Assembly: GCF_002854065.1 (NCBI RefSeq)
Contig: NZ_CP024147.1
Length of the DNA stretch: 64,000 nt
Reading direction: 5' to 3' (one strand)
Source of the DNA: Escherichia coli
GTDB lineage: Bacteria; Pseudomonadota; Gammaproteobacteria; Enterobacterales; Enterobacteriaceae
The number at the start of each line of letters is the position of its first letter. The first letter of the stretch is position 1. The notes beneath the pieces are model-generated. The model ran no database searches, was not told the DNA's origin, and was given only the letters and a program-made list of their open reading frames with translations. Position numbers and translations under genes: made by a program. Below are positions 13,238 through 16,582 of this stretch, in pieces.

Positions 13238-13388
13238 ATTTGATCCTCGTTATTATCAACCGCGGGCCTACCTTACCTGATTGCGCATTCACAACGCTTT
13301 CAGAAAAGTCCATAAAGCCGCGATGAACCTCAGTTAAGAAAATTATGGTCTACACTGAAAATTACATCGAATTCTAATGGGGGATCAT

Positions 13389-13718
13389 ATGTTTAACCGA
13401 CCGAACCGCAACGACGTTGATGATGGCGTGCAGGATATCCAGAATGATGTCAATCAATTAGCTGACAGCCTCGAATCTGTATTGAAGTCCTGGGGCAGCA
13501 ACGCCAAAGGGGAAGCTGAAGCCGCACGCAGTAAAGCTCAGGCTTTGCTGAAAGAAACCAGGGCGCGAATGCATGGTCGTACTCGCGTTCAGCAAGCCGC
13601 ACGCGATGCCGTTGGCTGCGCGGATTCTTTTGTTCGTGAAAGACCCTGGTGTAGCGTGGGAACTGCTGCTGCGGTAGGTATTTTTATCGGTGCGTTGTTG
13701 AGCATGCGTAAATCGTAG
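13389..13718 (+). CDS. ygaM: ElaB/YqjD/YgaM family membrane-anchored protein
   Basis: Sequence MFNRPNRNDVDDGVQDIQNDV... with C-terminal TM anchor; start at second ATG with RBS. Confidence 0.9.
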   Translation: MFNRPNRNDVDDGVQDIQNDVNQLADSLESVLKSWGSNAKGEAEAARSKAQALLKETRARMHGRTRVQQAARDAVGCADSFVRERPWCSVGTAAAVGIFIGALLSMRKS

Positions 13719-13845
13719 TGAGACGATGACAAGCAGTAGTCTGACTTCTGAAAAGTACTCAGTGCGTCAACGCCTTGTCCGCCTACAGGCCTGAAAAACA
13801 TAGCGCATCAGGGGATTTTGCCCTGGTCACCAGTCTTATAGGACC

Positions 13846-13862
13846 CCGAAGCCTGGCTTCGG
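13846..13862. terminator. Perfect palindrome ccgaagcc-t-ggcttcgg between convergent ygaM and MocR-type gene
   Basis: 8-bp perfect inverted repeat; flanking U-runs weak. Confidence 0.4.
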
Positions 13863-13867
13863 AGTTA

Positions 13868-15202
13868 TTAATTTAAAGCACTGCGCAATTGCTGTGCTAC
13901 CTGTCGCGCCATACTTTCGCTAACGATATTCGTAAACGAGAGCAATAATCCTCCGTCCTCGCTTGAGCGGATACGCCAGTCGCTAAGTGCCTGTACGGCA
14001 AGACCAGCAGCATTGGCTTTATGCACGAATGTCACGTCATTACCTGCTAGTTTGATCACCATCTGGATACCGCCTTTTTGCGGCACAACCTGAAATCCCT
14101 GCTGCGTAAGTGCCTGCTCAATCCACTGCCGTCGCTGGGCATAATGCTGGCGCATTTTCTTCAGATGCCGCCAGAAATGCCCCTCACGGATGAAATCTGC
14201 CAGTGTGTTCTGCCACAGTACGGGTACAGCACATGGTTCCAGTGACGCCTGCTGCCGGAATTGCGAAATCTGCTCCACCGGCACCACCAGCCACGCACAG
14301 CGCAATGCAGGAAATAGCGCTTTGCTGAATGTTCCGGCATAAATCACCCGCTGCGGCGCGTCGAGACTTTTTAGTGCCGGTAACGGCTTACCGTGATAGC
14401 GAAACTCACTGTCGTAATCATCTTCAATAATCCATGCCTGACTACGCTCTGCCCATTCCAGTATCTGATACCTACGCGCTAAAGAGAGTGCCACACCCAG
14501 CGGGCTTTGGTGTGCCGGAGTAATCAGGGCAAAACGCGCATCAGGATAATTTTGTATTCCGCTTGTGACATCCAGTCCGTTGTCATCAACCGGCACAGGT
14601 AAAATTTCCAGACCGTGGCGAGTGACAATCGGGCGAATCAGCGGAAAGCCGGGATCTTCCATCCACATCCCGTCTCCCGGTTGCGCCAGAGCGTGCAGAA
14701 TTAAAGCCATTGAGGCCGCATAACCGTGAGTGATAAAGACCTGCTCTGGCTGACAATCAATCCCACGTGAAACGCGTAAATAATCAACAATAGCCTCGCG
14801 CAAGGCCGCCTCGCCGCAGACATCACCTAATGCCAAATCAAAACGCGTCTGGGTACGCAGACGGCGGCCCATCACCCGCGCCCACAATTCACGCGGAAAA
14901 AGATCAAGTGCAGGTAGCCCCATCTGAAAAGGCAGCGGCTGCTGACTTTCACCAGCAAAAGCCACGACATCCACAGCAGACTGTTGCGGATGTATCTGCT
15001 CACTGACAAAGGTACCCGCCTGTCCCCGCCTGACCAGCCATCCCTGCGCCACCAGCTCAGCATAAGCATTTTCGACAGTGGATCGAGAGACACCCAGCTC
15101 CTGCGACCAGGTACGGCTCGAGGGTAGCCTTGCGCCAGGTTTCAGTTCTCCTTGCTCGATAGCCGTTTTTAACTGACGGGCGATATCCTGATAACGTGGC
15201 AT
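13868..15202 (-). CDS. MocR/GabR-type transcriptional regulator (N-terminal GntR HTH fused to a large C-terminal domain of aminotransferase size)
   Basis: 444-aa ORF; N-terminus MPRYQDIARQLKTAIEQGELKPGARLPSSRTWSQELGVSRSTVENAYAELVAQGW is a GntR HTH followed by a ~350-aa domain; divergent from next gene. Confidence 0.8.
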   Translation of the reverse strand: MPRYQDIARQLKTAIEQGELKPGARLPSSRTWSQELGVSRSTVENAYAELVAQGWLVRRGQAGTFVSEQIHPQQSAVDVVAFAGESQQPLPFQMGLPALDLFPRELWARVMGRRLRTQTRFDLALGDVCGEAALREAIVDYLRVSRGIDCQPEQVFITHGYAASMALILHALAQPGDGMWMEDPGFPLIRPIVTRHGLEILPVPVDDNGLDVTSGIQNYPDARFALITPAHQSPLGVALSLARRYQILEWAERSQAWIIEDDYDSEFRYHGKPLPALKSLDAPQRVIYAGTFSKALFPALRCAWLVVPVEQISQFRQQASLEPCAVPVLWQNTLADFIREGHFWRHLKKMRQHYAQRRQWIEQALTQQGFQVVPQKGGIQMVIKLAGNDVTFVHKANAAGLAVQALSDWRIRSSEDGGLLLSFTNIVSESMARQVAQQLRSALN

Positions 15203-15289
15203 ATGGTCTGCTTTTTTAGGTAATTTATGGCTCTCTTTAGCAGTCCATTATAGTGCTACATTGCGGGCGTTAATAAGAGGAGAAACTGT

Positions 15290-15721
15290 ATGACTACATT
15301 ACGTCAGCCTTACTACGAACTTAGCCCGGCAGTGTATAACGCACTGGTGCAGGCCAAAACGGCACTGGAAAATAGCACGCTGGATACCACGTTGATGGAG
15401 TTAATTTATTTGCGCGTCTCGCAAATCAACGGCTGCGCATTTTGTCTGGAGATGCACAGCAAAGCATTGCGCAAATCCGGTGTGCCACAACACAAACTGG
15501 ACGCCCTGGCAGGCTGGCGCGTAAGCCATCATTTTGATGAACGCGAGCGAGCGGCGCTGGCATGGGCGGAATCAGTGACCGATATTGCCAGAACCCATGC
15601 GGAAGACGAGGTTTATCAGCCTTTGCTTGAGCATTTCAGCGCAGCAGAAATCAGCGATTTAACGTTTGCCATCGGGCTGATGAATTGTTTTAACCGTCTG
15701 GCCGTTTCCATGCGGATGTAA
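15290..15721 (+). CDS. Carboxymuconolactone decarboxylase / AhpD-like family protein
   Basis: 143-aa ORF with CxxCxxxH-type motif (GCAFCLEMH) typical of AhpD-core proteins; divergent from the MocR-type regulator. Confidence 0.75.
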   Translation: MTTLRQPYYELSPAVYNALVQAKTALENSTLDTTLMELIYLRVSQINGCAFCLEMHSKALRKSGVPQHKLDALAGWRVSHHFDERERAALAWAESVTDIARTHAEDEVYQPLLEHFSAAEISDLTFAIGLMNCFNRLAVSMRM

Positions 15722-15929
15722 TTTGCTGTTGCCGGGTATGCGCCCGGCAAAAAAACACAAAATCCCCTACCCCGTTGAGCCATTCACCGGTGGCGTAATC
15801 AATCTAAAATTCCCATATCTTGTGTGGTTGAATCTTTTTTCAACTACATCTAGTATCTCTGTATCAACAGAGAGACAACCCGACGCGTATCATCGCGCCG
15901 TATCTTCATTTTAAACGGAAATACGAATC

Positions 15930-16175
15930 ATGCGCATTACTATTTACACTCGTAACGATTGCGTTCAGTGCCACGCCACCAAACGGGCGATGGAAAACCA
16001 GGGCTTTGATTTTGAAATGATTAATGTCGATCGCGTTCCTGAAGCGGCAGAAGCGTTGCGTGCTCAGGGCTTTCGTCAGTTGCCGGTAGTGATTGCTGGC
16101 GATCTTAGCTGGTCTGGTTTCCGTCCGGACATGATTAACCGTCTGCATCCAGCGCCACACGCGGCCAGTGCATGA
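15930..16175 (+). CDS. nrdH: Glutaredoxin-like protein NrdH
   Basis: 81-aa [29 protein letters not shown]... (CVQC redox motif). Confidence 0.96.
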
Positions 16176-16582
16176 GCCAGCTCGTCTACTTCTCCAGCAG
16201 CTCCGAAAACACGCAGCGTTTTATCGAACGTTTAGGTCTGCCCGCGGTGCGCATCCCGCTCAATGAGCGGGAACGGATTCAGGTAGACGAGCCTTACATC
16301 CTGATCGTGCCCTCTTACGGCGGCGGCGGTACGGCTGGCGCGGTGCCACGACAGGTAATTCGCTTTTTAAACGACGAGCACAACCGGGCGTTGCTTCGCG
16401 GCGTTATTGCTTCGGGTAATCGCAACTTTGGTGAGGCGTATGGCCGCGCTGGAGATGTGATTGCCCGGAAATGCGGCGTGCCGTGGCTGTACCGCTTTGA
16501 ACTCATGGGTACGCAAAGCGATATCGAAAACGTTCGTAAAGGAGTAACCGAATTTTGGCAACGACAACCGCAGAATGCCTGA
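16172..16582 (+). CDS. nrdI: Flavodoxin-like ribonucleotide reductase stimulatory protein NrdI
   Basis: 136-aa [24 protein letters not shown]...; 4-bp overlap with nrdH. Confidence 0.96.

Follow-up and report, generated by a model that had tools for sequence, protein, structure and literature searches.

A MocR-type regulator and an AhpD-like protein encoded between ygaM and nrdH: a probable regulator–target module of Enterobacterales that Escherichia coli K-12 has lost

Why do some Escherichia coli chromosomes carry two genes between ygaM and nrdH, and what might these genes do? In the 64,000-nucleotide stretch of DNA analysed here (the window), the end of ygaM at 13718 and the start of nrdH at 15930 enclose a gene for a MocR-type transcription factor and a gene for a small AhpD-like protein of the carboxymuconolactone decarboxylase (CMD) family. 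A preliminary description had proposed a 444-aa GntR-HTH reading frame and a divergent 143-aa frame with a CxxCxxxH motif, and both are confirmed in position and size. It further suggested that the pair forms a strain-variable islet, that the regulator controls its neighbour, and that the vicinity of the nrdHIEF operon is notable. As judged from the sequence comparisons that follow, the locus is probably an ordinary, old enterobacterial two-gene unit, in which a regulator of the PLP-binding type is combined with a small thiol-redox protein as its probable target.

The two genes are divergent and separated by an intergenic region of 87 bp; the positions of all features are collected in Table 1. 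The hairpin between the convergent ygaM and regulator genes is common to K-12-like genomes too, and hairpins occur at the equivalent place 3' of the CMD gene in other genera, some of them with a proper T-run. A search against Rfam gave no matches in 13300–16200.

Table 1 Features of the locus between ygaM and nrdH, in window positions.
Feature	Position	Strand	Remark
GC-rich hairpin between the convergent ygaM and regulator genes	13843–13865		ygaM terminator; inverted repeat I9
MocR-type transcription factor gene	13868–15202	-	444 aa; ORF call
Operator box 1, ATGGTCTG	15203–15210	+	abuts the regulator start codon; predicted
Operator box 2, ATGGCTCT	15227–15234	+	repeats box 1 directly, starting 24 bp downstream of its start; predicted
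Operator box 3, CAGTCCAT	15241–15248	+	inverted copy of box 1; CAGACCAT in many genera; predicted
Overlapping face-to-face -10 elements	15247–15254		read from the sequence; inferred, not mapped
Shine-Dalgarno GAGGAG of the CMD gene	15277–15282	+	columns nearly invariant in the alignment of 20 enterobacterial intergenic regions
AhpD-like / CMD-family gene	15290–15721	+	143 aa; ORF call
Hairpin directly 3' of the CMD stop codon	15730–15749	+	followed by an A-run, not a U-tract; fold computed

The assignment of the regulator to the MocR/GabR/PdxR type holds. Profile searches identify a GntR winged HTH at residues 4–66 (Pfam PF00392, E 1.3e-17), followed by a linker and, at about 100–440, an aminotransferase-like PLP domain of fold type I, within which residues 126–395 match Aminotran_1_2 (Pfam PF00155, E 5.4e-27). 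Two solved structures match over the full length, namely B. clausii PdxR (7pq9, E 4.6e-65), which is the best solved relative, and B. subtilis GabR (4n0b, E 7e-59). In a structure–sequence alignment K312, D279, Y281 and R319 of GabR correspond to K294, D261, Y263 and R301 of the regulator, which places the PLP lysine at K294. Together with S293 these are the predicted PLP residues, and the signature is complete: K294, D261, Y263 and S293 are invariant in 78 relatives and R301 is kept in 74 of the 78.

The GabR–gabTD system of B. subtilis thus shares with our regulator both the domain architecture and the PLP-binding Lys, Asp, Tyr and Arg. GabR is also encoded divergently from its target, and its operator spans the target's -35 region as well as the regulator's own promoter. 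The two systems differ in what is controlled, an aminotransferase/dehydrogenase pair in the case of GabR and, as predicted here, a redox protein. They also differ at Arg207 of GabR, reportedly the residue that binds the carboxylate of GABA, which corresponds to Leu188 at a position that is variable among the regulator's relatives. If this role of Arg207 holds, GABA is unlikely to be the effector.

Could the regulator be a true PdxR, as a newer RefSeq name implies? It would then act on vitamin B6 synthesis or salvage genes elsewhere, with PLP as sole effector, and the AhpD-like gene beside it would be of incidental or secondary significance. The PdxR equivalog of NCBIfam, NF052282, reaches 416.8 bits (cut-off 320), a PdxR is the closest solved structure, and the PdxR operator has two direct repeats and one inverted repeat, much like the box layout described below. 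However, the rhizopine MocR model of NCBIfam also scores high (368.8 bits), so these family models cross-hit, and none of the 19 closest loci of other enterobacterial species has pdxST, pdxK, pdxH or a B6 transporter gene next to the regulator. E. coli synthesizes PLP by the DXP-dependent route and lacks pdxST. In contrast to the PdxR–pdxST systems of B. clausii, C. glutamicum, Listeria and Streptococcus, the orthologous loci considered here are devoid of PLP synthesis or salvage neighbours. Moreover, the study that defined the PdxR, PdxW and PdxQ groups sets the enterobacterial group apart and gives COG2128 as its sole target in most genomes (PMC5320631). A true PdxR is therefore an unlikely identity, and the name "pdxR", which finds no support in the genomic context, is probably an over-annotation.

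The AhpD-like character proposed for the neighbouring protein is likewise borne out. Its residues 13–94 match CMD (Pfam PF02627, E 3.6e-21), and the NCBIfam model ahpD_dom (TIGR00778) scores 56.1 bits, above the cut-off of 27.8. In the translation the CxxCxxxH motif reads C49-A-F-C52-L-E-M-H56, and with E37 the set of catalytic-type residues comprises E37, C49, C52 and H56. Among 60 homologues C49, C52 and H56 are invariant, while E37 is found in 41 and F51 in 48. The four residues correspond to E36, C48, C51 and H55 of PA0269 from P. aeruginosa (structures 2o4d and 2ijc), which is 40% identical over the full length. AhpD of M. tuberculosis belongs to the same CMD fold family and has the same CxxC with a downstream His and an upstream Glu, but its motif is located C-terminally in a protein of 177 aa, whereas the 143-aa protein consists of a single domain with an N-terminal motif. 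A further difference concerns the fifth relay position, which is occupied by Phe51 here, by Tyr50 in PA0269 and by His132 in M. tuberculosis AhpD. Since the middle proton-relay residue is a phenylalanine, peroxidase chemistry may be weak or absent. For PA0269, a weak reduction of H2O2 that depends on cysteine and is sensitive to NEM has been described (PMC3141380). The CMD protein is most likely a hexamer-type AhpD-like CxxC thiol oxidoreductase, which would reduce a peroxide, a disulfide or an electrophile-damaged substrate.

Two more specific identities were considered and rejected. Membership in the canonical AhpC/AhpD system is contradicted by a score of 30.7 bits for TIGR00777, with a cut-off of 191.95, and by flanks in which ahpC is absent. 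A gamma-carboxymuconolactone decarboxylase (PcaC) does not fit either: the protein contains the CxxC, which gamma-CMD members lack (PMC3141380), and its neighbours are ygaM, the regulator and nrdH, not pca genes. As a separate observation, the product of z3974, a candidate for the CMD gene in O157, bound to a salicylidene acylhydrazide resin from an O157 lysate, which a Far Western did not confirm.

How closely are regulator and CMD gene associated in other genomes? In 79 loci picked by similarity of the regulator alone, a CMD homologue is found at most 3.5 kb away in 62 and is both divergent and adjacent in 35. The divergent partner is the CMD gene in every one of the 19 closest loci found in other enterobacterial species. 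The pairing of a MocR regulator with COG2128 is not new, as it has already been published as a predicted regulog. Suvorova and Rodionov (2016) defined a MocR group 'Spro_3719 - Enterobacteriales' with COG2128 as predicted target, whose members include STM2803 of Salmonella LT2, CKO_04020 of C. koseri, Ent638_0497 of Enterobacter, and representatives from Klebsiella and Serratia (Spro_3719); the same target is predicted for their 'PA0268' group, and COG2128 is listed 53 times in the regulon tables (PMC5320631). By its context our locus may belong to the former regulog: the COG2128 target and the enterobacterial hosts agree, and the Citrobacter loci that we examined share the layout. The E. coli copy is missing from the published list because that study used K-12, in which there is no pair (PMC5320631).

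A counterpart of the pair in Pseudomonas is PA0268, a MocR regulator predicted to control PA0269, although its regulon includes a cupin (COG1917) as well (PMC5320631). Pseudomonas relatives of the regulator are about 44–49% identical to it, and in several cases a further gene separates regulator and CMD. In Salmonella, STM2803 and STM2804 would presumably sit between ygaM and nrdH, going by the numbering of the locus tags. One paper reports that STM2804 is about 5 kb from stpA, which agrees with this placement.

If the regulator acts on its neighbour, can we find its footprint in the DNA between them? The intergenic region contains three predicted operator boxes, and in the alignment of 20 enterobacterial intergenic regions ATGG.CT of box 1, ATGGC of box 2 and AG.CCAT of box 3 are invariant. 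A conserved T-run follows box 1 at 15212–15217. The two putative -10 elements are TATAGT for the CMD gene (15249–15254, plus strand) and TATAAT for the regulator (reverse complement of 15247–15252); their core positions are invariant in the same alignment and the remainder is conserved across genera. The predicted start sites of transcription lie near 15260 (+) for the CMD gene and near 15240 (-) for the regulator. The three-box operator overlaps both of them, and box 2 additionally overlaps a weak -35 position (TATGGC / TTATGG) of the CMD promoter. A strict two-hexamer sigma-70 scan returned no promoter in the intergenic region, which we attribute to this weak -35. In the 20 enterobacterial loci the operator keeps a fixed distance to the CMD -10 but a variable one to the coding alignment of the regulator.

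The complete three-box pattern occurs once in the 64-kb window and in none of 100 shuffles. The same layout is found in Budvicia, Hafnia, Rahnella, Collimonas, Burkholderia, Herminiimonas, Terasakiispira and Sorangium; beyond Enterobacterales, where it is conserved, the predicted operator can be recognised in some Betaproteobacteria as well as in Terasakiispira and Sorangium. Part of the conservation of box 1 could reflect translation initiation and not protein binding, because the box overlaps the regulator's start codon. The segment 15203–15248 provides a concrete candidate operator for a widespread MocR-to-AhpD-like regulog that has so far only been predicted.

Conserved gene pairing and a deeply conserved operator footprint back the idea that the regulator controls the adjacent gene. 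We consider it likely that the locus is a self-contained regulator–target module, ancestral in Enterobacterales and lost in K-12, that comprises the MocR regulator, the three-box operator and the AhpD-like target. We infer its DNA binding, effector and sign of regulation, like the enzyme activity considered above. As a MocR-subfamily GntR factor, the regulator would hold PLP on Lys294 of its aminotransferase-like domain, and by analogy to GabR and PdxR a dimer would bind the two direct ATGG(T/C)CT boxes, 24 bp apart, and the one inverted copy. Relative to the CMD promoter the operator would extend from about -58 to -13, and in the opposite direction it would take in the entire leader of the regulator mRNA; from this position the regulator is expected to repress itself and to set the transcription of the AhpD-like gene. 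The signal may be PLP, or an amine that forms an external aldimine with it. Given a weak CMD -35 that box 2 overlaps, effector-dependent activation, as in GabR, seems somewhat more likely than simple repression of the CMD gene. We found no functional study of the MocR–CMD pair in the literature, be it on binding, effector or expression; once identified, the effector would account for one of the commonest classes of MocR targets.

The preliminary description had also pointed to the oxidative-stress-linked nrdHIEF operon as a notable neighbour. Could the AhpD-like protein be coupled to this class Ib ribonucleotide reductase operon, either by read-through into nrdHIEF or as a redox partner of NrdH, so that NrdEF regulation in carriers would be unlike that in K-12? 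The CMD gene has the orientation of nrdH, with 208 bp between its end and the start of nrdH, and nrdH lies beyond the CMD gene in 16 of the 19 closest loci. In Escherichia the hairpin 3' of the CMD gene is devoid of a U-tract, and carriers and K-12-like genomes differ strongly in the 40 bp that precede the nrdH core promoter. However, nrdH's own promoter and the NrdR-box region are conserved in every genus examined, terminators 3' of the CMD gene occur in several genera, with a canonical hairpin and T-run in Pseudocitrobacter and Rahnella, and the more distant MocR–CMD pairs of Pseudomonas, Burkholderiales and others come without nrdH. A conserved order of unrelated genes is also common among enterics. 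Coupling to the reductase thus appears very unlikely, and the suggested tie to nrdHIEF is not supported.

We attach slightly less weight to a more elaborate version, which we also deem very unlikely. Here the regulator would sense a PLP-reactive metabolite, such as an amine or a carbonyl stress signal, and switch on the CxxC protein, and part of the transcript would pass the U-tract-less hairpin into nrdHIEF. If this were true, carriers such as O157:H7 and B2 uropathogens would have a second, PLP-linked input to the manganese ribonucleotide reductase, an input that is absent in K-12. In K-12-like strains the changed sequence in front of the nrdH promoter would then be a compensation for the loss.

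This leads back to the question of whether the pair was gained by some E. coli strains or lost by others. In K-12 MG1655 ygaM (b2672) is directly followed by nrdH (b2673), as the preliminary description had stated, with a gap of 247 bp, and both genes of the pair are absent. Of 5426 complete E. coli genomes, 1387 (25.6%) carry the 1.89-kb stretch, always as a single chromosomal copy, which substantiates the claimed variability among strains. Such a patchy distribution would fit a strain-specific islet that came in by horizontal transfer between ygaM and nrdH, and so would the two E. coli allele classes, which differ by ~8–11% in the regulator gene and suggest at least one import by recombination.

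The surroundings tell a different story. In the 19 closest loci from other enterobacterial species ygaC or ygaM is found beside the regulator in 18, and the same order recurs in E. albertii, Citrobacter, Kluyvera, Pseudocitrobacter, Pseudescherichia, Cedecea, Pluralibacter, Shimwellia, several Enterobacter-named isolates and also Rahnella. Integrase, transposase, tRNA and long flanking repeats are all absent at the locus, whose GC content of 0.50–0.56 equals that of the flanks. A repeat search revealed no notable flanking repeats, as an 11-nt perfect inverted pair (13810–13820 / 15758–15768) is about what chance would produce in 2.1 kb. An extra spacer after ygaM was considered as REP-like and rejected, its sequence being single-copy and confined to 364 genomes of the window type.

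The position of the pair in most of these loci and in Rahnella, the flank-like GC content and the absence of mobility genes identify the K-12 state as a loss: K-12 and about 74% of sequenced E. coli have lost the pair by a deletion of ~1.9 kb. The deletion would begin directly behind the ygaM terminator and end at the hairpin 3' of the CMD gene. In the alignment with K-12-like sequence its right edge falls in or beside this hairpin, and the K-12 junction, which carries a T-rich microhomology, resembles a deletion in which the ygaM terminator has been joined to the hairpin's right arm. An acquired islet is thereby largely refuted and scarcely tenable; from the original proposal the variability stands, the acquisition does not. 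Hence, the arrangement in K-12 is the derived state, and the "extra" genes of O157:H7 and B2 strains are ancestral. The overall importance of this finding is modest, but it corrects a natural misreading of K-12 as the reference state.

Is the module in those E. coli strains that retain it still in use, or is it a decaying, effectively neutral remnant without current function? Besides its loss from about three quarters of the genomes, one may point to Salmonella, where STM2804 has served as a neutral site for marker insertion (PMC3723669). Yet purifying selection acts on both genes (dN/dS 0.03–0.12): values range from 0.07 to 0.12 for the regulator and from 0.03 to 0.08 for the CMD protein, and between the two E. 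coli allele classes they are 0.10 and 0.06, respectively. Near full-length copies are found in 1276 of the 1387 carriers, neither reading frame is disrupted in 1276 genomes, and the operator shows no variation. Decay to a neutral remnant seems improbable. The module is nevertheless dispensable in many niches, as indicated by the ~74% of E. coli without the pair and by the about 111 carriers that have only a partial copy (68–76% covered). In the one partial carrier examined (NZ_CP031215.1) the regulator is truncated by a 585-bp deletion that removes its codons 1–195, and the CMD gene is intact.

Between ygaM and nrdH lie two divergent genes, 87 bp apart, whose sizes and coordinates the preliminary description had exactly right: one for a GntR-type protein with an aminotransferase-like domain (the regulator) and one for an AhpD-like protein of the carboxymuconolactone decarboxylase family (the CMD gene). 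K-12 MG1655 has the order given there, with ygaM (b2672) followed after 247 bp by nrdH (b2673), no gene between them and both members of the pair absent. The pair is an ordinary ancestral MocR–AhpD-like module, lost by K-12 and previously predicted, and its reading as a regulator with its putative target is sound.

Features of the ygaM–nrdH region (window coordinates)
Feature	Position	Strand	Basis
ygaM end	13718
Regulator ORF, 444 aa	13868-15202	-	ORF read from sequence
Box 1, ATGGTCTG	15203-15210	+	conserved in 20 enterobacterial intergenic regions; T-run next
Box 2, ATGGCTCT	15227-15234	+	conserved in the same alignment
Box 3, CAGTCCAT (CAGACCAT in many genera)	15241-15248	+	same alignment; inverted copy of box 1
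Predicted -10 of regulator gene, TATAAT	reverse complement of 15247-15252	-	sequence
Predicted -10 of CMD gene, TATAGT	15249-15254	+	sequence
CMD ORF, 143 aa	15290-15721	+	ORF read from sequence
Hairpin past CMD stop	15730-15749
nrdH start	15930

Scanning the regulator protein against one genome per species gave 79 loci. The 19 closest (61-93% amino-acid identity) come from E. albertii, B2-like E. coli, three Citrobacter species, Kluyvera, two Pseudocitrobacter, Pseudescherichia and its relative ESNIH1, two Cedecea, Pluralibacter, Shimwellia, several Enterobacter-named isolates and one Klebsiella-named isolate. The CMD gene is divergent and adjacent in 19/19, ygaC and/or ygaM lies past the regulator 3' end in 18/19, and nrdH follows the CMD gene in 16/19; Rahnella, with a regulator of 47% identity, shares the gene order of the window. 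At 0.50-0.56 GC, the pair matches its flanks in composition, and neither mobility genes nor meaningful flanking repeats were found around it. When K-12-like genomes (those without the pair), UTI89, E. albertii and the window are aligned, the K-12 junction joins the T-run of the ygaM terminator to the right arm of the post-CMD hairpin across a microhomology of a few Ts, which marks the K-12 form as the product of a roughly 1.9-kb deletion. As read from these alignments, the K-12 state is a loss, not a gain. The proposed strain-variable islet thus varies among strains but, given the neighbours kept in relatives and the flank-like GC, was not acquired.

The extent of this variation was surveyed in complete E. 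coli genomes. The flanks are present in 5421/5426, the 1.89-kb stretch 13867-15756 in 1387/5426 (25.6%), and the stretch is chromosomal and single-copy in every carrier and near full-length in 1276. One allele class has >=99% identity to the window (358 genomes, O157:H7 and O145:H28 among them), the other ~92% (1023 genomes, UTI89 and Nissle 1917 among them). Partial copies covering 68-76% of the stretch occur in ~111 carriers. In the one examined, NZ_CP031215.1, a 585-bp deletion takes out regulator codons 1-195 and leaves operator, promoter and CMD gene intact. This deletion (L002, the locus in that genome, 1976-2809; window ~14620-15205) destroys the frame, has one edge exactly at box 1 and shows CACAT microhomology.

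Between window-type (O157:H7-like) and UTI89-type alleles, 13450-15150 is hyper-divergent: identity is 80-86% in the ygaM 3' half, the regulator 3' end and the linker region, and 95-100% in ygaC, the CMD gene and nrdH. With dS of 0.43 for the regulator, 0.37 for ygaM and 0.05-0.14 for the flanks, and dN/dS near 0.1, the pattern points to a segment imported long ago, by recombination, from some divergent lineage of Escherichia. The window-type allele also carries ~94 extra bases (13739-13832) between ygaM stop and terminator hairpin, absent in UTI89, E. albertii and K-12-like genomes. A 127-bp ygaM spacer, single-copy and found only in 364 genomes (O157:H7, O145:H28, others), stands in place of their TGATAATAAATACGC stretch.

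The assignment to the MocR/GabR/PdxR type holds. Pfam places GntR at residues 4-66 and Aminotran_1_2 at 126-395, and end-to-end alignments pair the regulator with B. clausii PdxR (7pq9, E 4.6e-65) as well as with B. subtilis GabR (4n0b, E 7e-59). GabR K312, the PLP lysine, D279, Y281 and R319 align to K294, D261, Y263 and R301; D261, Y263, S293 and K294 are invariant in 78 relatives, and R301 is kept in 74/78. GabR Arg207 contacts the GABA carboxylate; its position is taken by Leu188, variable among relatives, which would speak against GABA as effector. The dN/dS of the regulator is 0.07-0.12 in four pairwise comparisons.

Labels for this gene differ between RefSeq records: 'PLP-dependent aminotransferase family protein' in older PGAP runs, 'aminotransferase-like domain-containing protein' in one record, and 'pdxR: MocR-like pyridoxine biosynthesis transcription factor PdxR' in newer PGAP. 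The last name arises because the regulator scores 416.8 on the NCBIfam PdxR equivalog, above the cut-off of 320. Because the rhizopine MocR model also scores high (368.8 bits) and B6 genes are absent from the vicinity of the regulator in all orthologous loci, we do not file it as PdxR. Gene context does not support the name.

The CMD protein belongs to PF02627 and carries the expected CxxCxxxH motif as C49-A-F-C52-L-E-M-H56. Over its whole length it is 40% identical to P. aeruginosa PA0269, an AhpD-like hexamer whose relay consists of Glu36/Cys48/Tyr50/Cys51/His55 and which reduces H2O2 weakly and in an NEM-sensitive manner (PMC3141380). The relay corresponds to E37, C49, F51, C52 and H56, with Phe in place of Tyr. 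Among 60 homologues drawn from loci selected by regulator, C49, C52, H56, R42, E86, N135 and R136 are invariant and 41 retain E37; position 51 holds Phe in 48 and Tyr in the other 12. The protein falls short of the subfamily model for canonical AhpD (30.7 bits vs a cut-off of 191.95) and has no ahpC neighbour in its flanks. The dN/dS is 0.03-0.08.

Does the regulator control its neighbour, as had been proposed? Although the 79 loci were chosen by regulator similarity alone, 62 have a CMD homologue <=3.5 kb away: divergent and adjacent in 35, divergent with another gene between in 14, downstream on the same strand in 11 and otherwise arranged in 2. Five Pseudomonas loci (L021, L024, L025, L031, L043) show a ~1.2-kb gap with room for one gene between the two; a cupin (COG1917) is given as co-target in the PA0268 regulon (PMC5320631). 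The intergenic alignment contains a sharp footprint of three boxes and a -10 element, with TA(T/C)AGTGCTA directly past box 3. The distance from the boxes to the CMD -10 is fixed, while that to the start of the regulator coding alignment varies. The layout recurs in Budvicia, Hafnia, Rahnella, Collimonas, Burkholderia, Herminiimonas, Terasakiispira and Sorangium, and the complete three-box pattern has a single match in the window and none in 100 shuffles. Pairing and this conserved predicted operator support the proposed control.

The module is already predicted in the literature. The regulon reconstruction of Suvorova and Rodionov (2016), which spans more than 250 genomes, has COG2128 53 times in MocR regulons overall (PMC5320631). 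It is the target in most members of their group "Spro_3719 - Enterobacteriales" (Salmonella LT2 STM2803, C. koseri CKO_04020, Ent638_0497, Klebsiella, Serratia, Pectobacterium) and occurs also in group "PA0268" (P. aeruginosa, Burkholderia, Ralstonia); the E. coli copy is missing because K-12 was their E. coli genome (PMC5320631 and supplement). Our literature search turned up no experiments on the pair. An unconfirmed pull-down match is z3974, which from the tag numbering we take to be probably the CMD gene. Salmonella STM2804 has served as a neutral marker site with "no known function" (PMC3723669).

While domains, residues, pairing, footprint, selection and evolutionary history are shown by the analysis, the mechanism is modelled on GabR and PdxR. 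A regulator dimer loaded with PLP would sit on the CMD promoter from about -58 to -13 and also across the entire leader of its own mRNA. It would therefore repress itself and, depending on PLP or a PLP-amine aldimine, gate transcription from the CMD promoter. Box 2 covers the CMD -35, a poor match (TATGGC or TTATGG); accordingly, a strict scan of the intergenic region found no promoter. Because of this -35, activation may be slightly favoured over repression. At 15200-15218 the E. coli start codon of the regulator abuts box 1, and in the genera read through (Cedecea, Kluyvera, Collimonas) box 1 is overlapped by an ATG in frame. The mRNA leader upstream has an A-run but no evident Shine-Dalgarno sequence, and initiation of translation may therefore be coupled to occupancy of the operator.

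The association with nrdHIEF drawn in the preliminary description fared poorly. The CMD-then-nrdH order is conserved in Enterobacterales, but nrdH has a promoter and NrdR-box region of its own that is conserved in every genus examined, Pseudocitrobacter and Rahnella have canonical terminators past the CMD gene, and distant MocR–CMD pairs occur without nrdH. The Escherichia hairpin is followed by AAAAAAA with no U-tract, and some read-through toward nrdH is therefore possible; a functional link is nevertheless very improbable. Citrobacter FP75 and Pluralibacter have hairpins similar to that of Escherichia, and the one in Shimwellia is terminator-like. The roughly 40 bp immediately before the nrdH core promoter (15777-15815) are near-identical between the window, UTI89 and E. 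albertii and very different in K-12-like genomes; a changed distal upstream region thus accompanies pair loss. All genera examined share the conserved sequence that runs from about 15806 on (NrdR-box-like ATATCTTGTGTGG, TTGAAT, TAGTAT).
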